A stretch of 64,000 nucleotides of DNA from Candidatus Kaiserbacteria bacterium (GTDB taxonomy: Bacteria > Patescibacteriota > Minisyncoccia > Phycocordibacterales > UBA2100). Below are positions 4,652 through 57,855 of this stretch, in pieces. The position numbers were made by a program, and so were the translations under genes. The stretch covers positions 207,656-271,655 of the forward strand of contig JACRFK010000003.1 of NCBI GenBank assembly GCA_016217925.1. Direction: 5' to 3'. Position 1 is the first letter of the stretch. Each line of letters begins with the position of its first letter. The notes beneath the pieces were generated by a model. It made no database searches. It saw only the letters and a list, made by a program, of their open reading frames with translations, and was not told the DNA's origin.

Positions 4652-5647
4652 CTATTGTGCGTTTTGCTGTGCCTGCCCATTTCCGCCGAAGGCGGATTCT
4701 CCTCCGGAGAACAATTTGTAATACGCGCGGTTGGTGAAGCGGAGATCTATATATTCAAGCTTGTCCCGTTTATCCTTCAACACGTCCGATGAAAGCACGA
4801 GTTGCAAATTTTTCACGAGAGTGTTCGCATCAGCGCCGTATGAGGCTTTGATGGTAAAACCTTCTCCAAGCTGCACGAAAAAGTCCTGGTCGTTATCCAC
4901 GTGTGCTCCGAGCGGGGTGAGGCCCGCCTGCCCCAAGAGCTTGAGGAGCGAGAGCATGCCCGGCAAGTGCGCCTGAACGAACGACTCCCCTAACGGGTAG
5001 GTCGAGGTGGCAGTCACCTCCTGCGCGGGTAGCCCCCCGGCAAAAACATACTGCGTACTCGAGGTGGCGGTGCCAGCCCAACCCATCGGTGCGTAAATAA
5101 ATCCACTCGCGTCCATCAGATAGCAGTATCCCTGTTGGATTCCAGTGCACCAACGGGCAAACGGCTCACGCTCCTCTATCGTAATAACGATGTCCGTCGC
5201 AAATACGGAAGGCCGTGAAATGTGGACTGATTTAACGGGATGAAAAGATGCGATTGCCTTCTCGAGTTCCACCTGCGGATACAAAAAGATATTACGGCGC
5301 GAGAGAACATGGTACGCGCCGTCGTCGAGTACCGTCTCGACGAAACGTTTGACGTGTTCTTCTTTCATGCCCTTGGCACCCACGACAGAAATGCCGGATA
5401 CGTTGAACTGCGGAAGGTACGAGGCCCAACTCACCCCATAAAAAATCGCACCGCATAGAACGAGGACAGCGAGCGCAAAGACTGCGCGCACGCGCCGACG
5501 CCTTGCGCGCAGGGGCATCGGCCGCTTCGGCGGCTCGGGAGCGCGCGGACCCTGCAGAGAAAAAAGCGGCACCTGCCCGCGCGGCGGGCTCTTCGGCGCA
5601 CGGCCGCCCCGTAAATCAATGACTCCACTACTTTTTTTCGATTGCAT
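4652..5647 (-). CDS. ftsQ: cell division protein FtsQ/DivIB-like (POTRA domain)
   Basis: N-terminal TM (VFALAVLVLCGAIFY), POTRA-like VKSVHISRPSVFATDIVITIEEREP. C-terminal tail SGGESAFGG is encoded by a copy of the ~30-nt palindromic element. Confidence 0.55.
   Translation of the reverse strand: MQSKKSSGVIDLRGGRAPKSPPRGQVPLFSLQGPRAPEPPKRPMPLRARRRRVRAVFALAVLVLCGAIFYGVSWASYLPQFNVSGISVVGAKGMKEEHVKRFVETVLDDGAYHVLSRRNIFLYPQVELEKAIASFHPVKSVHISRPSVFATDIVITIEEREPFARWCTGIQQGYCYLMDASGFIYAPMGWAGTATSSTQYVFAGGLPAQEVTATSTYPLGESFVQAHLPGMLSLLKLLGQAGLTPLGAHVDNDQDFFVQLGEGFTIKASYGADANTLVKNLQLVLSSDVLKDKRDKLEYIDLRFTNRAYYKLFSGGESAFGGNGQAQQNAQ
4682..4711. repeat. ~30-nt palindromic in-frame element (GG-Ser-rich coding), copy in ftsQ 3' end
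   Basis: CCGCCGAAGGCGGATTCTCCTCCGGAGAA; about 85% identical to copies in gyrA, pth and the GIY-YIG gene. Confidence 0.7.
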
Positions 5648-19378: not shown

Positions 19379-22105
19379 TTACGCGGCAATCTTTGCGCGA
19401 GAGCGGGCGCCACGATGGCGTTCCGGGCCTTTGCGCACGTCGAACTTGAAGTCGCCCTGGCCGGGCAGGCCTTTCTTACCGTTGTCCGCTCCGCTTGACG
19501 GATCAAAATCCACAGTAACGGAACCTCCCTCCATGACCCCGCGGGCGACCATCATATTGGCCACCGCCGTAAGTATCTTCGTCTGAATGAGACGCTTGAG
19601 CGGACGCGCTCCGTACTGCGGGTTGTAGCCTTCCTTCGCCAAGTGCGCTATCGCCGCTTCTGTGAGAGTAAGTTTGATCTGTTTTTCTTCCAATCGTTTG
19701 GCGACGATATCGGTCTGCATGCGCACGATATCCATGATGGCATCGGTCGAAAGGATATTGAAGAGAACTATCTCGTCGAGACGGTTCAGGAATTCGGGGC
19801 GGAAGAACTCTTTGAGCGCGCCCATTACCTTTTCCTTCACCTGTTCGTAACGCTCACCTTCGGTCTTGGAAAGGCCGCTTCCGAAACCAAGACCCGACAT
19901 CTTGTCGATGTGCTCGGAACCGATATTGGAGGTCATGATAATGACCGAGTTCTTGAAATTGACCACGCGGCCCTTCGCATCTGTCAGTCGGCCGTTGTCG
20001 AGGACCTGAAGAAGGATGTTGAACACTTCCGGATGCGCCTTTTCGATCTCATCGAAGAGAATGACCGAATACGGGCGATGGCGTACGAGCTCGGTCAATC
20101 CCCCGCCCTCGTCGTAGCCGACATAGCCCGGCGGGCTGCCTATCATCTTGGAGACAGAATGTTTCTCCATGTACTCGGACATATCGACGCGGATCAAAGC
20201 TTTTTCGCTGTTGAAAAGGAAGTCGGCAAGCGCACGAGTAAGCTCGGTCTTACCCACACCTGTAGGACCGAGGAAAAGGAACGAGCCCACCGGACGGTTG
20301 GGATCGGCAATCCCCGCGCGGCTGCGCTTGATGGCATCTGAAACTTTTTGCACCGCTTCATCCTGGCCCACGATACGGGTTTTCAGTTCGGATTCCATGC
20401 GTGAGAGCTTCTCGGCTTCTTCTTCAAGCATTCGCGAGACAGGCACACCGGTCCAACGGGAGACGACCGCGGCGATGTCTTCTTCGGTGATCTCTTCTTT
20501 CAATACGCGGCGTGTCTGCTGGAGCTTCTTCAGGCGTTTCTGTGCTGTCTCGATCTCTTTTTCGAGCAGCGGTATCTTGCCGTAGCGCATCTCGGCGGTC
20601 TTGGTGAAATCTGCGGCAGCCTCCGCTGAATCAGCTTCGATGCGCGCTTGCTCAAGCTCATTCTTGGCGCGTTTTATCTCAACGAGCGTATCTTTTTCGT
20701 TCTTCCATTTCACCTCAAGCTCACGTGTCGAATCGCGAAGGTCCGCGATTTCCTTCTCTATTGTGCGCGTCCTCGTACGGGCCTTGCCTTCCTCGGCTTC
20801 GGATTCTTTCTTGAGTGCTTCCCGCTCAATCTCCAGGCGCGTTACCTTGCGATGTGCCTCTTCGAGTATCGGCGGCTTGTTCTCGAGCGAGAGTCTGAGT
20901 GCGGAGGATGCCTCGTCGATGAGGTCTATGGCTTTGTCCGGCAAGAATCGCTCCGTGATATAGCGAGCAGAGAGTTGCACGGCCGCGATCATCGCATCGT
21001 CAGTAATGTGTACACCGTGGTAGAGCTCATACCGTTCTTTCAGCCCGCGCAAAATAGCGATGGCGTCCTCGATGGAAGGCTCATTGATGTACACGGGCTG
21101 AAAACGGCGCGTGAGAGCCGCATCGTGCTCAATGTGCTTTTGGTACTCTTTGATAGTGGTCGCGCCGATGACGCGGATGTCGCCGCGTGCGAGCGCCGGC
21201 TTCAGCATATTGGAAGCGTCCATTGAGCCCTCAGCCGCCCCGGCACCAACGAGCGTGTGTATCTCATCGATAAAAAGAATTATCTTGCCTTCTGAGCGCT
21301 CGACCTCTTTCATGACCGCCTTGAGCCGCTCTTCAAATTCCCCGCGATATTTGGTGCCCGCGATAAGGAGCCCCAGGTCAAGCTGGATTATTTCCTTGCC
21401 ACGCAGCGATTCGGGCACGTCCGACGAAGCGATGCGTTGAGCCAAGCCTTCTGCGACGGCGGTCTTCCCCACACCGGCCTCGCCGATAAGAATGGGATTA
21501 TTTTTGGTGCGACGCGAGAGTATTTGTATCACGCGTGTGATCTCCTGGTCGCGGCCAATGACCGGATCGAGCTTGTTCTCGCGTGCGCGGTCGGTGAGCG
21601 AACGCGCGAATTTTGCGAGAGCGCGGGGCTTTGACGGCGCATCAGTGTCGCGTATTTTTCCCTCTTTAATGTCCGTAAGCACGCGTGCGAGAGCGGCGCG
21701 ATCGATGCGAAAACGTGTCAGGATATCGGCTGCTGGACCGGGGTGTTCGGTGATGCCGAGCAAGAGGTGTTCCGGCGAGACGAACTGGTCGTTGAAAGAT
21801 GCCGCGATGCGCGGTGCCGCCTCGAACACCCGCACAAGCTCGGGTGTGAGGTAGAGCTGGAAGGATGGTGAGACCGCGGTATTGCCCGAGACGCCTTCTA
21901 TCAACTCCAATATCGAATCCGAAAGGTGTGCGACATCTATCTCGCCCTGCTCGAGCATGGGCACCACCATCGTCTCTTCCTGCATCAAAAGCGCCGCAAA
22001 GAGGTGCAACGTGGAGACCTGATTGTGTCCGCGCTCTACGGCAAGCTGATGCGAGCGGTGTATCGCTTCCTTTGCCTTCGTCGTGTAATTATTGAATGGA
22101 GCCAT
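19379..22105 (-). CDS. clpB: ATP-dependent chaperone ClpB
   Basis: 908 aa; two AAA+ modules ([18 protein letters not shown]), middle coiled-coil, Clp N domain. Confidence 0.9.
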
Positions 22106-25894: not shown

Positions 25895-26218
25895 ATGGAA
25901 TCACGAAGACAGACGCAGGTCTCGCAGCTTATATCCCAACTCGCCGGAGATTTTTTCGCGCGGGAATCCAATGTGAAGGCGCTTATCACCGTCACGCACG
26001 CCGATGTGTCCCCGTCTTTCAAGGAAGTAACAGTGTTCATTACTGTCCTACCGCAGACCATGGAGGAGCAGGCACTCAAATTCGCGAAGCGTGCCCGAAG
26101 TGATTTCCGCGAATATCTCAAGAAGCAGACACGATTGCATCCCATTCCCATCGCCGACTTCGCCATAGACTTAGGCGAGAAGAACCGACAGCGCATCGAT
26201 GAATTAACGAGAAATTGA
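25895..26218 (+). CDS. rbfA: ribosome-binding factor A
   Basis: 107 aa; RQTQVSQLISQLAGDFF...ITVTHADVSPSFKEVTVFI KH-like RbfA. Confidence 0.75.
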   Translation: MESRRQTQVSQLISQLAGDFFARESNVKALITVTHADVSPSFKEVTVFITVLPQTMEEQALKFAKRARSDFREYLKKQTRLHPIPIADFAIDLGEKNRQRIDELTRN

Positions 26219-26289
26219 GGCCACGGCGGGACTCGAACCCGCGCATAAGAGTTTTGCAGACTCCAGCGTTACCCCTTCGCCACGTGGCC
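26218..26289 (-). tRNA. tRNA-Cys (anticodon GCA)
   Basis: GGCCACG...GGAGT CTGCAAA ACTCT...GGTTCGAGTCC...CGTGGCC T. Confidence 0.8.
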
Positions 26290-26331
26290 AACGCGTGTAC
26301 TCTATCATAATTTAAGCTAAGATTGTCCGAG

Positions 26332-26415
26332 GTCGGGGTGGCGAAATTGGTAGACGCGCGTCACTTAAGATGACGTGACCGAAAGGTTCTGAGGGTTCGA
26401 TTCCCTCCCCCGACA
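26332..26415 (+). tRNA. tRNA-Leu (anticodon TAA), type II
   Basis: GTCGGGG...CGTCA CTTAAGA TGACG, long variable arm, GGTTCGATTCC, CCCCGAC A. Confidence 0.8.
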
Positions 26416-26416
26416 C

Positions 26417-32541: not shown

Positions 32542-35100
32542 TTATTCTGCTACGGCGACCGCTTCGAACACCACGAACGATGCGACCGAATCCCCTTCGC
32601 GCATTTTCATCACACGCACTCCCTGCGTCGCGCGACTGAGGGTCGGGATTTCGTCTAAACCTGTACGAATGGTCTGACTTTTCTTGGACATCGCGACGAG
32701 CTCGCCGCCGCGCGCGAGCACAACTGCGGCGCCGACAAGCTGCTTGGTCTTTGCGGTGATTGACATCGTTTTGATACCGCTACCGCCGCGACCCTGCTTC
32801 TTGTATTCCGAAAGTTTTGTCTTCTTGCCGTACCCTGTCGAAGAAAGAACGAGAAGCTCGGCGTCTTTTCCTCCGGAGGAGGATCTGCCTCCGGCAGACA
32901 CGCCCTTCGGTACGATGCCCGTGCCGACGATGTTATCTCCGCTTCCCAGTTTCATGCCGCGCACACCCGCCGCCTGCCGGCCCATCTCACGCACGTCTTT
33001 GACCGCGAAGCGAATGGCCTGCCCTTTCGACGTCGCCAAGACCGCATCATCACCCGGGTATACGAATTGTGCGGAAATAAGGGCGTCGCCCTTGTCGAGG
33101 CCGATGGCGATAAGCCCGCTGCGGCGTACCTCGTGGAATTGCGACGCGGCTACGCGCTTCACCGTACCATTCCTCGTCGCCATCAGGAGCGAGAGACCTT
33201 CGACGGCTTTCTTTTCTTTCGGCATCGCGAGGATGGAGGTGATTTGTTCGCCTTGTTCAAGCGAGATGAAATTCATAATGGATTTTCCCTTGGTGGCGCG
33301 CTTGCCTTCGGGGAGGTCGTACATTTTGAGCTGGTAGACTTTGCCGCGGTCCGAGAAAAAGAGGAGGTCCGAGTGCGCGCTTGCGGTCAAAAATTGCGTG
33401 ACGAAATCTTCTTCCTTGGTGTCGAGGTCGACGACGCCGACGCCGCCGCGCTTTTGCCTGCGGTACTCAGCCGGATTCGTGCGCTTGATGTAGCCGCCCT
33501 GCGTGAGTACCAAGACGGAGTCCTCGTCGGCAATCAGGTCTTCGGCGGAAAGTATCGTCGCGCCGCGCTTCACGATTTTCGTGCGGCGGTCGTCGCCGTA
33601 CTTTTCGACGACCTCGCGCAACTCCTTCTTGATGAGCTCCATGAGCTTCTTCTCGCTCTTCAAAAGCGCGGTCAATTCTTCGATGAGCGTCTGTACCGCT
33701 TTCAATTCGTCTTCTATCTTCTTGCGTTCGAGCCCCGCGAGCTTTTGCAGACGCATGTCGAGAATCGCATTGGCCTGCAGCTCGGAAAATCTTCCTCCGA
33801 AGGAGGACCCGCCTCCGGCGGGGATCTTTCCCATCAACTGCGCCCGCGCGTCGTCCACGTCTTTGGACTTCTTGATGAGCCTGATTATCTCGTCGATGTG
33901 GTCAAGCGCTTTCTTTAGGCCGAGAAGGATATGCTCGCGCGCCTGTGCGATTTTGAGATCGTACCGGGTGCGGCGTGTGACCACCTCTTTGCGGTGCGCG
34001 ACGAAGTATTCAAGAAGTGCTTTGAGCGAAAGCGTCTGCGGCACGCCATCGACGAGCGCGACGACGTTGTAGTGGAAGGTCTCTTCAAGCTGCGTGTGTT
34101 TGTAGAGATAATTGAGCACCGTCTGGGCGTTGGCGTTGTTCTTCAATTCGATGACAACGCGGATGTCTTTGGTGCTTTCGTCGCGGATATCGCGGATGCC
34201 TTCGAGCTTTTTTTCATGCACGAGGTCGGCGATTTTCGTGAGCAGGTCCGACTTATTTACGCGAAACGGTATCGAGGTGACGACTATCTGATAGTCGCCC
34301 TTCTTGCCCTCGGCAATTTCCGCATCTCCGCGCACGACGACTCCCCCGCGGCCCGTGGTGTATGCGTGTCTGATGTCGGTCTGATTGAAAGCGATACAAC
34401 CTGTTGGGAAATCCGGCCCTTGAACGAATTTCAAAAGGTCTTCGGTCGTCGCATCGGGATTTTCTATCAGGTGAATGGTCGCCTCGCCGACTTCGCGGAG
34501 ATTGTGCGGAGGGATGTTGGTCGCCATACCGACCGCGATGCCGAGCGTGCCGTTCAGAAGAAGATTGGGTGTTGCTGATGGCAAGACGGTCGGCTCCTGC
34601 TTTGTGTTGTCATAATTCGGAGCGTAATCCACCGTCTCTTTCTCGATATCGCGCATCATCTCGCCCGCGAGCCGCGACATCTTGGCTTCGGTATAGCGGT
34701 AGGCGGCCGCACCGTCGCCGTCGATGGAGCCGAAGTTGCCTTGGCCCACGATGAGCGGGTAGCGCATCGTGAAATCCTGCGCCATCTTCACCATCGCGTC
34801 GTACACCGATGCGTCGCCGTGCGGATGGTATTTGCCGAGCACGTCGCCGACCACGGTCGCGGATTTGCGGGTCTTGGCTGAGACGGTGAGACCGGCTTCT
34901 TGCATCGCGAATAGGATGCGGCGGTGTACCGGCTTGAGCCCATCGCGGACATCGGGAAGTGCGCGCGCGGTGATGACGGACATCGCGTAGTCGAGGTACG
35001 ACTCGCGCATTTCGGTCGAGATAGAACGAGCGCGGACCCCTTCGGGTCGCGCTATCGGAGCAGATGTTTCCTCGTTTTTCCTCGCTGCCATGATGGACAC
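32542..35100 (-). CDS. gyrA: DNA gyrase subunit A
   Basis: 852 aa; active-site Tyr region [23 protein letters not shown]; C-terminal beta-pinwheel. Carries two in-frame copies of the ~30-nt palindromic element (AGGRSSSGG; AGGGSSFGG). Confidence 0.9.
32868..32896. repeat. ~30-nt palindromic in-frame element, gyrA copy 1 (CTD)
   Basis: TTCCTCCGGAGGAGGATCTGCCTCCGGC; encodes AGGRSSSGG on the coding strand. Confidence 0.7.
33790..33824. repeat. ~30-nt palindromic in-frame element, gyrA copy 2
   Basis: TCTTCCTCCGAAGGAGGACCCGCCTCCGGCGGGGA; encodes [11 protein letters not shown]. Confidence 0.7.
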
Positions 35101-39781: not shown

Positions 39782-39830
39782 ATCCCGACGCTTCGGTCGG
39801 GACTCCGACCCTATTTGGCGTCGGAGTTGA
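39782..39830. repeat. structured double-hairpin repeat R3 (copy 2, inverted)
   Basis: CCGACGCTTCGGTCGG and ACTCCGAC..GTCGGAGT hairpins; reverse complement aligns with 18491..18540. Confidence 0.5.
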
Positions 39831-40443
39831 ACTTGTTCATCGCTATCTGAGGGCCGTCGGCGACGACAGCCTCGAGCGCTCCCGCGACTTTTTTGAAAAC
39901 TTTTTGTAAAATTTCTAATTCTGACGGTTTTCCGCCGGAGGCGGATCCTCCTTTGGAGGAGAACTTCGAGAGAATGAATTTGACGACTTCGTCTTCGCCT
40001 TGCGGCTTCTTGAGTTTGCCCCCCGGAGTCTCGGGCGAGACGCCTACGCGCACGCGCGTGAATTTCTTGGTCTTCACCGCTTTCATAATAGACTCGACTC
40101 CCCTGTGCCCGCCACTTCCTCTATTGAATGAGAGCTTGAGGCCGCCGATAGGCAGGTCGAGGTCGTCGTAGACGACGACCATGCGCTCGGCGGCCTTCTG
40201 ACTTTTGACGAATTTGAGTACCGCCGCGCCGGATTTGTTCATAAAGGTGTCCGGAGCGACGAGTACGACCGCAGTTTTCCCTATCATGCCGCTCGCTACA
40301 TGCGCTTTTGACTTGTTATCCTCCTTCCAGTCGCCGAATTGCATCTGTTTCCCAAAAAATTCAAGCGCCATGCGGCCTGTATTGTGCCGCGTGCCTTGAT
40401 ATTCCTCTCCGGGATTCCCCAAACCGACGATTACCCATGCCAT
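39811..40443 (-). CDS. pth: peptidyl-tRNA hydrolase
   Basis: VGLGNPGEEYQGTRHNTG, MNKSGAAV, DDLDLPIGGLKL; start at internal MAWVIVGLGNPG. In-frame 10-codon insertion SSKGGSASGG in the GKPP loop from the palindromic element. Confidence 0.85.
   Translation of the reverse strand: MAWVIVGLGNPGEEYQGTRHNTGRMALEFFGKQMQFGDWKEDNKSKAHVASGMIGKTAVVLVAPDTFMNKSGAAVLKFVKSQKAAERMVVVYDDLDLPIGGLKLSFNRGSGGHRGVESIMKAVKTKKFTRVRVGVSPETPGGKLKKPQGEDEVVKFILSKFSSKGGSASGGKPSELEILQKVFKKVAGALEAVVADGPQIAMNKFNSDAK
39931..39961. repeat. ~30-nt palindromic in-frame element, pth copy (opposite orientation)
   Basis: TCCGCCGGAGGCGGATCCTCCTTTGGAGGAG. Confidence 0.7.
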
Positions 40444-40460
40444 GAGCGGATAATATCCGC

Positions 40461-40550
40461 TAATTTTCAATTTACAAGTAACAATTTTCAAAAAACGCCG
40501 CATTACGAGCTCCTCATTTGAAAATTGGAAATTGGAAATTGGAAATTTCG
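40461..40550. promoter_or_regulatory. divergent pth/lepB promoter region with (GGAAATT)3 and AATTTTCAA repeats
   Basis: TTTGAAAATTGGAAATTGGAAATTGGAAATTTCG; TAATTTTCAATTTACAAGTAACAATTTTCAAAAAA; related motifs upstream of infB. Confidence 0.35.
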
Positions 40551-40693
40551 CGATGGAACATCGCGCACGCTTGGTGTCAACGCCGCTCACACAGTAGAAT
40601 ATCGCACATGTCTGATCCCGTGGTGCCAGTTGACCCATCACGGACCCCGTTAGAGATTCATAGAGAACTTGTTGTTGGTGATTTAAATAGTAT

Positions 40694-43610: not shown

Positions 43611-44755
43611 ACATCGGCACGTACCACGTCAAGGTCGTTGTCGCAGCGCCTACGGAGAACTCTGAGCTCCCGCTTACTATCCTGGGCACCGGCACATCGA
43701 CGTCGCGCGGATTACGGCACGGCTATATCATCGACCAAAAAGAGGCGACGCGGAGTATCCGCGAGGCGCTCGGGCGTGCGCTCGGCGCGGCAAAGGTCAA
43801 AGTGCGTAGCACACGGGTGGCCCTCGGGGGCATCGGCCTCGATGAGATACGTTCCACCGGCGAAGTAGCGCTTACCGTATCCGGCGGCGTCGTGACAGAG
43901 CGCGAGATAGACCGCGCACTCCGCGAGAGCGAGAAAAAAGCTTCCGCCAAGCTAACGAACCGCACCGTTATCCATGCAATACCGCTCGAGTACCGTGTAG
44001 ATGGCACCAAGGTTTTCGGCAGGCCGCTCGGGCTTCAAGGCACGCGCCTCACCGTCGACACGCTCCTCATAACGATGCTCTCACAACACCAGGAAGACCT
44101 CATCGAGGCGGTCGAGGCCGCCGGTATCGAAGTCGATGGCGTTATGGCCTCTCCGCTTGCCGCGAGCCTCGTCACGCTCACGAAGGCGCAAAAAACCGCT
44201 GGCGTCGTCCTCGCGAATATCGGCGCAGAAACACTCTCTGTCGTCGTCTTCGAAGACGATACGCCGATCTCGCTCAAGATCTTCCCGACCGGCTCATCCG
44301 AGATAACGGAATCCATCGCCCTTTCGTTCAAGATACCGCTCTCGGAAGCAGAGAGCCTCAAGCGTGGCGGTGTGATTGGAAGCGACATCCCAGAGAAAAA
44401 AATGGGCGTCATTATCGGCGCACAGCTCAAAGAAATGTACACACTCGTGAACGCACATCTGAAAACCATCGGCCGCCACCGTCTTTTGCCCGCGGGTATC
44501 GTCATTACAGGCGGCGGCTCAGGCCTTACTTCCGCGGCGGAAATCGCACGCGCCGTCCTCCAGCTACCCTCGCAGGTCTCACAGATAGGGCAGATGCCAC
44601 GCTCATCCGGCGTTGACGCCACGTGGGCGGTCGCCTACGGCCTCTGTAGGTGGGCCTACGCCGAAGACGCCTCAGGGGCGCGGCAGACGTTTGGCGGGGT
44701 CCTCTCCGGCGGCTGGGAGTCATTGAAACAAGGCTTGCGATCGTTACTCCCATAA
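43583..44755 (+). CDS. ftsA: cell division protein FtsA
   Basis: Actin-fold IYTGIDIGTYHVKVVVA...GGIGLDE...VITGGGSGL; start at internal MQRPIYTG; overlaps ybeY by about 28 nt. Confidence 0.85.
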   Translation: MQRPIYTGIDIGTYHVKVVVAAPTENSELPLTILGTGTSTSRGLRHGYIIDQKEATRSIREALGRALGAAKVKVRSTRVALGGIGLDEIRSTGEVALTVSGGVVTEREIDRALRESEKKASAKLTNRTVIHAIPLEYRVDGTKVFGRPLGLQGTRLTVDTLLITMLSQHQEDLIEAVEAAGIEVDGVMASPLAASLVTLTKAQKTAGVVLANIGAETLSVVVFEDDTPISLKIFPTGSSEITESIALSFKIPLSEAESLKRGGVIGSDIPEKKMGVIIGAQLKEMYTLVNAHLKTIGRHRLLPAGIVITGGGSGLTSAAEIARAVLQLPSQVSQIGQMPRSSGVDATWAVAYGLCRWAYAEDASGARQTFGGVLSGGWESLKQGLRSLLP

Positions 44756-57224: not shown

Positions 57225-57229
57225 ACTTG

Positions 57230-57301
57230 TGACCCTACCGGGAATCGAACCCGGGTTCCATGCTTGAAAAGCATGTGTCCTAACCGTTAGACGATAGGGC
57301 C
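57230..57301 (-). tRNA. tRNA-Glu (anticodon TTC)
   Basis: GGCCCTA..GTCT AACGGTTA GGAC..CATGC TTTTCAA GCATG..GGTTCGATTCC..TAGGGTC A. Confidence 0.75.
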
Positions 57302-57555
57302 GTGCGGTCAATACTATCAAAAAGATCCTTTCTTGCACGTGCAGTTTTCTTTAAGAAAAGTTCCCGCAAACGGGCTTCTTTTTTGTTCACGAACATTTGT
57401 ACGTATTCCAACTTCCAGGGGCGGTAACCTTTAGTCGAACGGACCTCTCCTGCATTGTGTTGGGATAGTCTTCTCGACGGATTGCTTGATATGCCGATGT
57501 AATGTCGTGGCAGCGCCGAGCTTTTCAGGATATAAAGGAAGTGGATATTTTCCAT
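57280..57555 (-). CDS. GIY-YIG nuclease family protein (UPF0213-like)
   Basis: MENIHFLYILKSSALPRHYIGISSNPSRRLSQHNAG...GYRPWKLEY; 3' end overlaps tRNA-Glu 5' end. The listed ORF start (57627) is TTG; ATG at 57555 is more likely. Confidence 0.65.
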   Translation of the reverse strand: MENIHFLYILKSSALPRHYIGISSNPSRRLSQHNAGEVRSTKGYRPWKLEYVQMFVNKKEARLRELFLKKTARARKDLFDSIDRTALSSNG

Positions 57556-57575: not shown

Positions 57576-57607
57576 GTCCTCCGGAGGAGGATCCGCCTCC
57601 GGCGGAA
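57576..57607. repeat. ~30-nt palindromic element, copy in GIY-YIG leader (canonical copy)
   Basis: CGTCCTCCGGAGGAGGATCCGCCTCCGGCGG; would encode SAGGGSSSGG only if the TTG-extended ORF were used. Confidence 0.7.
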
Positions 57608-57743
57608 AAGTGTGCTATTTTGTTCAAAGTCAGCTCGTTGCAACATTCACTCCGAATGTTGCTGGAGCGGCGCGAGGCGCCGCTCCGCCGGAGAAGCTGC
57701 TATCGCGGCTCTCTGAAGGGGCGAACCGCAAGGTTCGTCCAAA

Positions 57744-57828
57744 GGAGAGGTGGCTGAGTGGTCTAAAGCACCGGTTTCGAAAACCGGCATGGGGCAACCC
57801 ATCGAGAGTTCGAATCTCTCCCTCTCCG
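57744..57828 (+). tRNA. tRNA-Ser (anticodon CGA), type II
   Basis: GGAGAGG TGGCTGAGTGG...CCGGT TTCGAAA ACCGG, long variable arm, GAGTTCGAATCTC, CCTCTCC G. Confidence 0.8.
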
Positions 57829-57855
57829 CAATGAATGTTCAAGAGTCTCTGACGG

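Follow-up and report, generated by a model that had tools for sequence, protein, structure and literature searches.

A 30-nt double-hairpin element found in frame in housekeeping genes of Patescibacteria and its coupling to a small GIY-YIG gene lodged in tRNA genes

A stretch of 64,000 nucleotides from a Candidatus Kaiserbacteria genome (contig JACRFK010000003.1, positions 207,656 to 271,655; from here on, the window) carries a short G+C-rich sequence that recurs within the reading frames of gyrA, pth and an ftsQ-like gene, and once more beside a small gene for a GIY-YIG nuclease. The question that this locus raises is how the same 30 nt came to lie in unrelated genes, and which enzyme, if any, would move them. 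The evidence presented here makes it very likely that the sequence represents a family of mobile elements inserted in frame; the fuller reading, i.e., a miniature, non-autonomous mobile element family with a home locus coupled to a GIY-YIG gene, is considered likely as a whole. It follows that essential and conserved proteins of the Patescibacteria (gyrase, aminoacyl-tRNA synthetases, DnaK and others) have been repeatedly rewritten by a selfish insert of ten codons, and such inserts have consequences for annotation, for phylogenetic markers, for structure prediction and for strain typing in this superphylum of ultra-small bacteria (the candidate phyla radiation, CPR), which makes up a large part of bacterial diversity and is poorly known.

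Presence and absence of the element at orthologous sites

The 28-mer CCTCCGGAGGAGGATCCGCCTCCGGCGG matches the window at five places with 0 to 3 mismatches each, i.e., 4683-4710(-), 32870-32897(+), 33794-33821(+), 39932-39959(-) and 57578-57605(+). Dinucleotide-preserving shuffles of the window gave no match to this 28-mer, as compared with the five observed, and a sixth copy does not appear in the window even at seven mismatches or fewer. The five copies listed in an initial annotation of this DNA are therefore real, with coordinates that were right within 1-4 nt, and they exceed what chance among Gly and Ser codons would give. The four intragenic copies have their start at codon position 2 in common, and each of them reads xGGxSxxGG whatever its orientation. 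The gene names gyrA, pth and GIY-YIG were upheld by Pfam, but the name ftsQ corresponds only to a sub-threshold match and to the usage of some sources, hence the term FtsQ-like used here. The features of the window are collected in Table 1.

Table 1. Copies of the element and associated features in the window.
Feature	Position	Strand	Remarks
30-nt element, FtsQ-like gene	4682..4711	(-)	Stem TCTCC..GGAGA (compensated); encodes FSGGESAFGG, near the C-terminus
FtsQ-like open reading frame (ORF)	4652-5647	(-)	POTRA_1 below threshold, E=0.067; homologs called FtsQ by some sources
30-nt element, gyrA site 2	32869..32898	(+)	Stem CTGCC..GGCAG (compensated); residues 735-744, C-terminal beta-pinwheel
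30-nt element, gyrA site 1	33793..33822	(+)	In frame; residues 427-436, loop preceding a helix
gyrA	32542-35100	(-)	Pfam
30-nt element, pth	39931..39960	(-)	Encodes SSKGGSASGG; flanked by the VL-S-K-F strand and the C-terminal helix
pth	39811-40641	(-)	Pfam; positions are those of the ORF, true start near 40443
30-nt element, home-locus copy	57577..57606	(+)	Exact consensus; 21 nt upstream of the ATG of the GIY-YIG gene
Single-domain GIY-YIG nuclease gene	57280..57555	(-)	91 residues, MENIHFLYILKS...; Pfam PF01541, E=5e-16, sole domain
tRNA-Glu(UUC)	57229..57301	(-)	Directly downstream of the GIY-YIG ORF, co-oriented, 22-nt overlap (57280-57301)
tRNA-Ser(CGA)	57744..57829	(+)	Divergent neighbour of the home locus; likewise in L118 and L136

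The evidence for insertion comes from orthologs (designated P and a number for proteins, L and a number for fetched loci, and WIN for the window sequence). As the initial annotation had proposed, each of the four intragenic copies (two in gyrA, one in pth and one in the FtsQ-like gene) corresponds to an exact presence or absence of ten codons. At the DNA level, exactly 30 nt are present or absent at gyrA sites 1, 2 and 3, at the pth site and at the FtsQ-like site, without target-site duplication, and orthologs that lack the insert reach 92-98% identity to the filled ones. For GyrA, 120 orthologs with 82-96% identity were aligned. The copy at gyrA site 2 is present only in the window among these orthologs; it separates PKGV from KDAELL, which are contiguous in the empty proteins, leaves both flanks unchanged, and corresponds to the empty DNA GGCGTG^AAAGAC (the caret marks the insertion point), again without duplication. 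The copy at site 1 is restricted to six of the 121 sequences (WIN, P0001, P0037, P0060, P0072 and P0073), and its empty site reads ACGTTC^AAATTT. Site 3 (MPKEK^KAVEG) is empty in the window and filled in P0015, P0016 and P0020, as well as in P0100, where the variant is different. In pth, the syntenic relative L113 is empty (AAGTTT^AAGCCA), and L116 and L105 are filled with the identical 30 nt. The FtsQ-like protein reads YYKL-FSGGESAFGG-NGQ in the window versus YYKL-KGQ in most homologs. On the other hand, the degenerate copy that had been suspected at the 3' end of ftsA (44691-44717) is native sequence, given that FGGV(L/I)SGGW is also present in L113 without any indel and that no search found a copy there.

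The five pairs of empty and filled sites without duplication (GTG^AAA, AAG^AAA, TTC^AAA, TTT^AAG and CTA^AAG) agree with a flank logo that is T-rich from -4 to -2 and A-rich from +30 to +32, which gives a TTT^AAR-like target. Independent variants are present at the same site in P0016 and P0100 (GyrA site 3), and in P0197, whose copy is canonical, and the window (FtsQ-like site); thus, some sites were hit more than once. The idea that the genic targets are the loops of local hairpins was discarded, since by inspection it is true only of gyrA site 2 (GGCGT-G^AAAG-ACGCC).

Once inserted, the copies are conserved to a higher degree than their surroundings. In pth, the window, L116 and L105 have copies that agree at 30 of 30 positions, as compared with an identity of 64.5% at synonymous third positions. 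The stems of the copies at GyrA site 1 differ between the window and L116 by a single compensated pair and nothing else. For the FtsQ-like site, 30/30 and 29/30 positions of the element are identical in genes that are approx. 75% and 58% identical. Filled alleles of this last site that share a rare compensated variant are scattered among empty sisters in a neighbour-joining tree, so that they are polyphyletic. In L197 the flanks match those of the window and not those of its close sister L198, at a small number of informative sites. One GyrA protein filled at site 3 shares 98.5% identity with the closest relative that is empty there, but 6 of the 15 residues immediately downstream of the insert differ. 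We read these patterns as two modes of spread: the element inserts de novo at new sites, and recombination passes filled alleles laterally, along with short co-converted tracts. An alternative for the scattered filled alleles is repeated precise excision.

Fold, reading frame and distribution of the element

Alignment of the flanks of 139 copies revealed that a T at -1 (135/139) and an A at +29 (134/139) join the 28-mer, and therefore the unit is of 30 nt. Under DNA parameters it folds into two adjacent 15-nt hairpins, each with a G+C-rich stem of 6 bp and a loop of 3 nt, with the consensus T-CCTCC-RRA-GGAGG-A followed by T-CCGCC-TYY-GGCGG-A. Covariation was evaluated in 48 distinct copies with at most four mismatches, mainly from loci chosen by protein, and no pairing criterion was applied. 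In the two-hairpin model, with 12 pairs, 94.7% of the cells were paired and both partners had changed in 10 of the 12 pairs. The model scored 0.346 for covariation; the mean of the shuffles was 0.120, none of 500 reached the score, and slid controls gave 0.082 or less. A single long hairpin, i.e., the perfect palindrome, was rejected as the relevant fold because it is weaker in both covariation and pairing: 81% of the cells were paired, 7 of 12 pairs changed on both sides, and its score was 0.191 (shuffle mean 0.145, slid controls up to 0.123). The length of 30 nt given in the initial annotation is exact, and the palindrome described there is better represented by two separate 15-nt hairpins. 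The compensated stem variants include CAGCC/GGCTG, CGGCC/GGCCG, CCGGC/GCCGG, GCGCC/GGCGC, CCTTC/GAAGG and CCACC/GGTGG. Furthermore, a sequence-agnostic scan for two perfect 5-bp hairpins with 3-nt loops placed 2 nt apart yielded 197 such double hairpins across 1.2 Mb of the DNA that had been fetched, versus one after shuffling. In the relaxed search for copies, matches with five mismatches were mostly noise and were dropped. From these results, the hairpins rather than the primary sequence are the conserved feature of the element.

The reading frame of the copies is strongly biased. Approximately 75% of them are intragenic (105/139 lie in ORFs of at least 150 codons), and 88 of these 105 are read in the Gly/Ser frame (binomial p=2e-26), 41 in one orientation and 47 in the other; the Gly/Ser reading in either orientation, noticed before in the window, where it applies to 4/4 intragenic copies, is a property of the wider set. 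The other two frames read PP-x-(A/E)-DPP or RRR-I-L/R-RR, and copies in these frames are mostly upstream of gene starts. A few off-frame copies are within long, apparently Pro-rich proteins, indicating that the Gly/Ser frame is strongly preferred but not obligatory; examples are L066 3761, L080 6964, L104 2501 and L069 7169, where (F/L/S)PP-x-EDPP-x-AE probably belongs to disordered stretches. If insertion is blind to frame, if the genomes are coding over about 90% of their length and if two of the three frames are purged, a genic share of approx. 75% is what would remain.

In their hosts, the in-frame copies read as a flexible Ser/Ala-Gly-Gly-x-Ser-x-x-Gly-Gly loop and are placed between secondary-structure elements of housekeeping proteins. 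A total of 138 Pfam families was detected among 78 host proteins, including aminoacyl-tRNA synthetases of classes I and II, GyrA, GyrB, UvrD, DnaK, EF-type GTPases, Mur ligases and ribonucleotide reductase. The insert of Pth comes after the conserved VL-S-x-F strand and before the C-terminal helix, and the alignment to solved Pth chains stops at the insert. In an AlphaFold model of GyrA, which is weak (mean pLDDT, the predicted local distance difference test, of 52.6), both inserts are local minima of confidence in coil between secondary-structure elements. The copies represent, in this sense, an abundant natural experiment on where flexible loops of ten residues are tolerated. They may also be clustered, as in L050 164-428, where three in-frame copies are found within approx. 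80 codons of one ORF.

The distribution of the family was evaluated with the pattern CCTCCNNNGGAGGATCCGCCNNNGGCGG, which has 22 fixed bases and is expected approx. 0.07 times in the 596 Gb searched; it was found in more than 112 stretches of contigs from a set with one genome per species. Among the 80 stretches listed, 65 are explicitly labelled as CPR, 12 are labelled plainly as bacterium, and three have other labels. The CPR labels include Kaiser-, Uhr-, Lipton-, Harrison-, Doudna- and Levybacteria, Saccharibacteria, Paceibacteria, Minisyncoccia, and the Parcubacteria and Patescibacteria groups. The three remaining stretches (L010, L061 and L067) are labelled as an archaeon, Brocadiia and Cloacimonadota, respectively, and may be mis-binned CPR contigs. 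The GC content of the host contigs varies from 27 to 58%, and the density of the element is about one copy per 13-28 kb. A phage vehicle was rejected, since 2.9 million viral contigs contain no exact match to the pattern. The element family is therefore widespread in the Patescibacteria, across many lineages, and is by no means confined to the positions first noticed in the window.

Home locus of the element: a GIY-YIG gene and a tRNA

The fifth copy in the window had been assigned to the leader of the GIY-YIG gene. This position is correct, but the copy is not incidental: it marks a conserved home locus formed by the element, the GIY-YIG gene and a tRNA, which is what is new here. In contrast with the intragenic copies of the window, which carry changes, the home-locus copy is identical to the consensus. 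Among the loci selected by the element, five of ten small GIY-YIG genes have it directly upstream. As an independent test, 80 metagenomic loci were retrieved solely for their protein similarity to an alignment of five of these GIY-YIG proteins, and 43 of the 74 that have enough upstream sequence carry the double hairpin 35-110 nt upstream of the match. The proximal element is present in nearly all the closest GIY-YIG homologs, and in approx. 12 loci a further copy follows immediately beyond the gene; distant homologs carry variants of the element with compensated stems. When perfect double hairpins of any sequence were counted, 42 were located in the 13.2 kb upstream of these genes versus 15 in the remaining 311 kb, which amounts to an enrichment of 66-fold (Poisson 2e-60). 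These results show the physical coupling of the element to a small GIY-YIG gene lodged in tRNA genes. As a side observation, tandem copies 43-63 nt apart are found upstream of some GIY-YIG genes (L033 2056-2126, and the upstream regions of L138 and L177).

In L117-L176 the GIY-YIG gene is almost always 0-40 nt upstream of a co-oriented tRNA, which is tRNA-Glu for the close homologs and tRNA-Ser, Gln, Gly, Ala, Arg or Phe for the distant ones; an arrangement like that of the window is present in L013, L033, L079 and most of L117-L176. Upstream of the gene there is a near-identical duplicate of the 5' part of the adjoining tRNA, and the element is inserted in one of its loops, usually between anticodon nucleotides 35 and 36 (CTTT^CAC in Glu, CTCG^AAA in Ser), whereas some loci have it at position 8/9, in the D-loop or in the T-loop. 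Single hairpins are also present in the D-loop region of the tRNA fragment in L079 and L013. In three loci (L137 980-1620, L141 1150-1800 and L131 2900-3520) two elements bracket the nuclease gene and an intact tRNA-Glu; a second tRNA-Glu is split into its 5' and 3' halves, which are outside of the elements, with further nested 3' halves in L131. It looks as if the bracketed unit had been inserted whole at anticodon position 35/36, bringing a replacement tRNA. Tandem units were found in L070 and L169. A split-tRNA home locus at 35/36 suggests a route without an intron for a selfish gene to enter an essential tRNA gene.

The position between nucleotides 35 and 36 has been reported as an insertion site for group I introns, in tRNA-Asn and tRNA-Asp, that is enriched in Patescibacteria (PMC13011429), and the usual site of the element coincides with it. 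An intron-like removal of the element from the tRNA was rejected, given that an in silico deletion restores a full tRNA at three GIY-YIG loci only, all of which have an intact duplicate; in addition, the strict frame bias in genes implies that the element is translated. It was also considered whether the proximal copy could act as the Shine-Dalgarno sequence of the nuclease gene. This was discarded too: it is the GGAGG arm in about half of the cases and the GGCGG arm in the others that is turned towards the ATG, with a spacing of 10-15 nt.

The nuclease is a single-domain protein with a median of 83 residues among 57 homologs, in which the GIY/YIG tyrosines and the Arg, His-Asn and Glu residues are conserved. 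Its nearest solved relatives are UPF0213 proteins (E~2e-4); a search of NCBIfam gave no match to the protein, and a tblastn search for plasmid-borne relatives of the nuclease found none. A larger ORF with a GIY-YIG domain (174-229 residues as called) is present at L113 18879-19403 and L114 18879-19568, where it overlaps or adjoins the pair tRNA-Leu(taa) and tRNA-Cys; the window has the same pair at 26217-26416. A scan of the window with Rfam detected tRNAs only. Between tRNA-Ser and the home-locus copy the window has three more G+C-rich hairpins (57640-57686 and 57719-57740), formed by GCAACATTC/GAATGTTGC, GGAGCGGCGC/GCGCCGCTCC (10 bp, perfect) and GGGCGAACC/GGTTCGTCC, with sequences unrelated to that of the element.

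Related systems, possible mechanism and rival explanations

The element works like the Ssn/SRM and the REP/RAYT systems and behaves in proteins like the Rickettsia palindromic elements (RPE), but it departs from the definition of each of these groups. Ssn nucleases bind NTS hairpins in single-stranded DNA (ssDNA) and cut a few nucleotides upstream (PMC11893778, Chenal et al. 2025); the activity that defines the system is site-specific for ssDNA near the hairpin and does not extend to double-stranded DNA or RNA. Both systems have a single-domain GIY-YIG protein (approx. 90 residues in Ssn and 91 here) encoded by a gene flanked by a dispersed hairpin repeat, of 20-50 nt in the case of Ssn; in both, the variants of the repeat co-vary with nuclease lineages, the repeat-gene-repeat arrangement resembles an insertion sequence (IS), and the repeats are enriched in reduced or symbiotic bacteria. 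The differences are nevertheless several. The published SRM motif is HGTCWYN(0-2)YYVSBRHN(0-5)WNVSBRGN(0-2)RNCYNB (PMC11893778), and the consensus of the element, TTTT-CCTCC-RRA-GGAGG-AT-CCGCC-TYY-GGCGG-AAAA, lacks the GTC tag and by inspection is outside of it; there are two hairpins here versus one; about two thirds of the copies of the element are intragenic and in frame, versus 2% intragenic for NTS (PMC11893778); the home locus of the element is embedded in a tRNA gene; and its hosts are Patescibacteria, which are unmentioned in the main text of PMC11893778.

The REP/REPIN-RAYT system is likewise made of short, G+C-rich, non-autonomous palindromes with a conserved hairpin, which flank a single-copy enzyme gene and persist for long periods. 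However, REPs are extragenic by definition and have a GTAG or CGTC tag (PMC3733652), whereas the element is intragenic in 105 of 139 copies (ORFs of at least 150 codons) and its ends are only T-rich and A-rich, without GTAG or CGTC. The REP enzyme is a Y1/HUH transposase, and the gene flanked here encodes a GIY-YIG protein, with the proviso that Y1 enzymes were not searched systematically; moreover, a REPIN consists of two inverted REPs forming one long hairpin, and it is the fold of two hairpins that is supported for the element. As regards RPE, which Ogata and colleagues reportedly described in 2000 as sequences of approx. 100-150 bp encoding 30-50 residues and restricted to Rickettsia, the likeness is that of selfish palindromes placed in frame in essential genes of reduced genomes, where the added surface peptide is tolerated. 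This likeness, already pointed out in the initial annotation, was borne out over that of an ancestral linker by orthologs that are 92-96% identical and lack the ten codons. Still, the unit has 30 nt and ten residues and its hosts are Patescibacteria, and we know of no conserved partner gene or tRNA-linked home locus for RPE.

With the IS200/IS605 family and the palindrome-associated transposable elements (PATEs) the element shares the recognition of hairpins, the logic of ssDNA and the existence of tiny non-autonomous derivatives; IS200/IS605 elements also insert beside a short specific sequence without duplication, as observed here at the five pairs of empty and filled sites. Their ends, in contrast, are longer and asymmetric, with guide sequences, and in-frame coding insertion is no hallmark of theirs. 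No Y1 HUH transposase (TnpA) was noticed beside the copies, where no dedicated search for it was made. In mitochondria, the double-hairpin elements (DHEs) of Allomyces are mobile units with two hairpins. These and the yeast mitochondrial GC clusters (PMC4478555), very short G+C-rich mobile palindromes that are sometimes placed in frame within coding sequence, in reduced genomes richer in A+T, are the nearest analogues in size and shape, but they are organellar, their sequences are unrelated as judged by description, and no GIY-YIG/tRNA home locus has been described for them. There is also a resemblance to GIY-YIG homing genes, although we know of no homing enzyme that scatters a 30-nt repeat into unrelated genes. 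Genes of this class such as segB of phage T4 (SegB, PMC2330249) are lodged among or within tRNA genes, and the co-conversion of their flanks resembles the patches observed around filled alleles; unlike the protein described here, which has a single domain of 83-91 residues and whose associated repeat is found at many unrelated sites, their products have an extra DNA-binding domain and one cognate site.

By analogy with Ssn/NTS and RAYT/REP, the odds are slightly in favour of the GIY-YIG protein being the partner enzyme of the element. It would recognise the double hairpin in ssDNA and cut at its borders, and this cut could enable the copying of the element to new sites, a process that the protein would drive or assist, perhaps through a homing-like conversion of empty alleles after DNA uptake. 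Given that GIY-YIG enzymes are not known for strand transfer, completion of the reaction would fall to replication or repair by the host. Insertion would probably be frame-blind, and selection would remove the Pro/Glu/Asp-rich and the Arg-rich frames; filled alleles would also pass between related genomes by homologous recombination, short flanking tracts included.

Several points weigh against the coupling of mobility and nuclease, or reduce the strength of the numbers given above. The link between the element and the nuclease is one of sequence and gene position; to our knowledge, GIY-YIG enzymes are nucleases and not strand-transfer transposases, and we know of no established insertion chemistry even for Ssn/NTS. 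The element is outside the published SRM search motif, and 31 of the 74 GIY-YIG loci have no recognisable proximal copy, most of these being distant homologs and a few having decayed copies. The association could also stem from the loops of dispensable tRNA fragments, which would be ideal neutral targets. With respect to the samples, several of the fetched loci are near-duplicates from different samples, so that the counts stand for somewhat fewer independent loci; coding frames follow the longest ORF instead of the calls of a gene finder; in the set selected by the element the stems are invariant by the design of the search pattern, and this set was used for flanks, loops, frames and hosts only; and the covariation sample, limited to four mismatches or fewer, still leans towards the consensus.

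The most serious rival explanation accepts that the element is mobile but considers the GIY-YIG gene as a separate tRNA-homing cassette that leaves a dispensable tRNA fragment behind; the element would collect there for no other reason than that single-stranded tRNA loops are neutral and are the target it prefers, and another enzyme or host repair would move it. The proximal copy is indeed always in a loop of the duplicated tRNA fragment (anticodon 35/36, D-loop or T-loop), and the tRNA sequence continues on both sides of it, which indicates a separate insertion and not the end of a cassette; the anticodon-loop site TTT^C (TTTT^CAA in tRNA-Glu) fits the general TTT^ target; GIY-YIG enzymes are not known to be transposases; and a free-standing GIY-YIG homing gene in a tRNA cluster exists, i.e., SegB of phage T4 (PMC2330249). 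A mere landing site, however, would not readily account for an occupancy of 55-90% of a target of only 40-60 nt, far above that of other intergenic DNA, nor for stem variants that track distant GIY-YIG lineages and different tRNA identities. In some loci the elements bracket the nuclease and the tRNA in the manner of an IS, the proximal copy of the window has the exact consensus when the intragenic copies are changed, and no alternative enzyme was seen, though none was systematically searched for. Altogether we regard this explanation as unlikely, though clearly ahead of those that follow.

It could also be argued that the hairpins are mainly a cis signal of benefit to the host, which controls recombination or transformation, as has been proposed for NTS, marks sites where RNA or DNA is processed or stabilised, or makes ribosomes pause via the Shine-Dalgarno-like GGAGG, and that selection keeps them at each site. 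The copies are more conserved than the synonymous sites of the host genes, their stems are repaired by compensation at orthologous sites, the unit contains GGAGG and CCTCC, and NTS/Ssn modulates transformation in Neisseria (PMC11893778). Nevertheless, the conservation would result equally from recent spread or from gene conversion among copies, the copies are patchy among very close orthologs, no gene requires one, both orientations are equally common, and host genes and positions are very diverse; this explanation, which is compatible with mobility and could apply as exaptation, seems improbable. Even less probable is a DNA uptake sequence (DUS), or one similar to the uptake signal sequences (USS), that accumulates in competent CPR bacteria and is tolerated in certain frames. 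CPR bacteria are thought to take up DNA, and filled alleles appear to move between lineages by recombination; USS and DUS do occur within genes in preferred frames, DUS with 34% of intragenic copies (PMC11893778). The insertions, however, are discrete units of 30 nt and not the product of point-mutation drift, the density of approx. one per 13-28 kb is low compared with about one per kb for DUS/USS, what is conserved is a covarying hairpin and not a fixed word, and the linkage to the nuclease gene is tight. Finally, there might be no element at all but ancestral Gly/Ser linkers, chance G+C-rich codons, or an artefact of assembly or adaptors, as could be suspected from the G+C-rich codons of Gly and Ser and from the GGATCC-containing Gly-Ser linkers common in synthetic constructs. 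The presence/absence and distribution data already refute this explanation, to which we give hardly any credit: shuffles give no copies, orthologs 92-98% identical lack the insert, covariation is strong, the same nucleotide sequence is found in hosts with 27-58% GC within one superphylum and from many laboratories and assemblers, and the same site is filled in independent assemblies (window, L116 and L105).

Returning to an element mobilised with the help of its nuclease, a more ambitious version can be put forward tentatively, with a probability that we place below even. In this version, the small GIY-YIG nuclease would mobilise the 30-nt element; an autonomous unit formed by element, nuclease, tRNA and element would invade tRNA genes at 35/36 with a replacement tRNA; and solo hairpins would write loops of ten residues into essential proteins across the whole CPR and spread between genomes by co-conversion. 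If GIY-YIG mobilisation is true, the element would be among the smallest mobile DNA units known, and transposition or homing by a GIY-YIG enzyme on single-stranded hairpin DNA would represent a mode not demonstrated for this enzyme class. The link to the GIY-YIG gene extends the Ssn/NTS idea to a new superphylum and to a new repeat architecture, and dozens of co-varying nuclease/hairpin pairs are candidates for site-specific ssDNA nucleases of biotechnological interest. In the searchable literature, which leaves out most subscription journals, we found neither the element nor the GIY-YIG/tRNA/hairpin locus described; this is consistent with the initial view that the family had not been described, without being a proof of it.

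A second in-frame palindromic insert, unrelated to the element, is present in the pth gene of the relative L113 (4578-4618), and likewise in L114. This palindrome (CACCCGCCTCGACTCGCGGCGACTCGTCGACGCGAGGCGGG) has 39 nt, encodes TPASTRGDSSTRGG, and is located at GTCA^AAAGTCAG of pth, a site that is empty in the window and in L116. A 36-nt variant of it is found in L113 within the IF-2 gene (20279-21844), at 21678-21713. The Kaiserbacteria thus seem to harbour several families of palindromic elements in coding sequence, two at the least.

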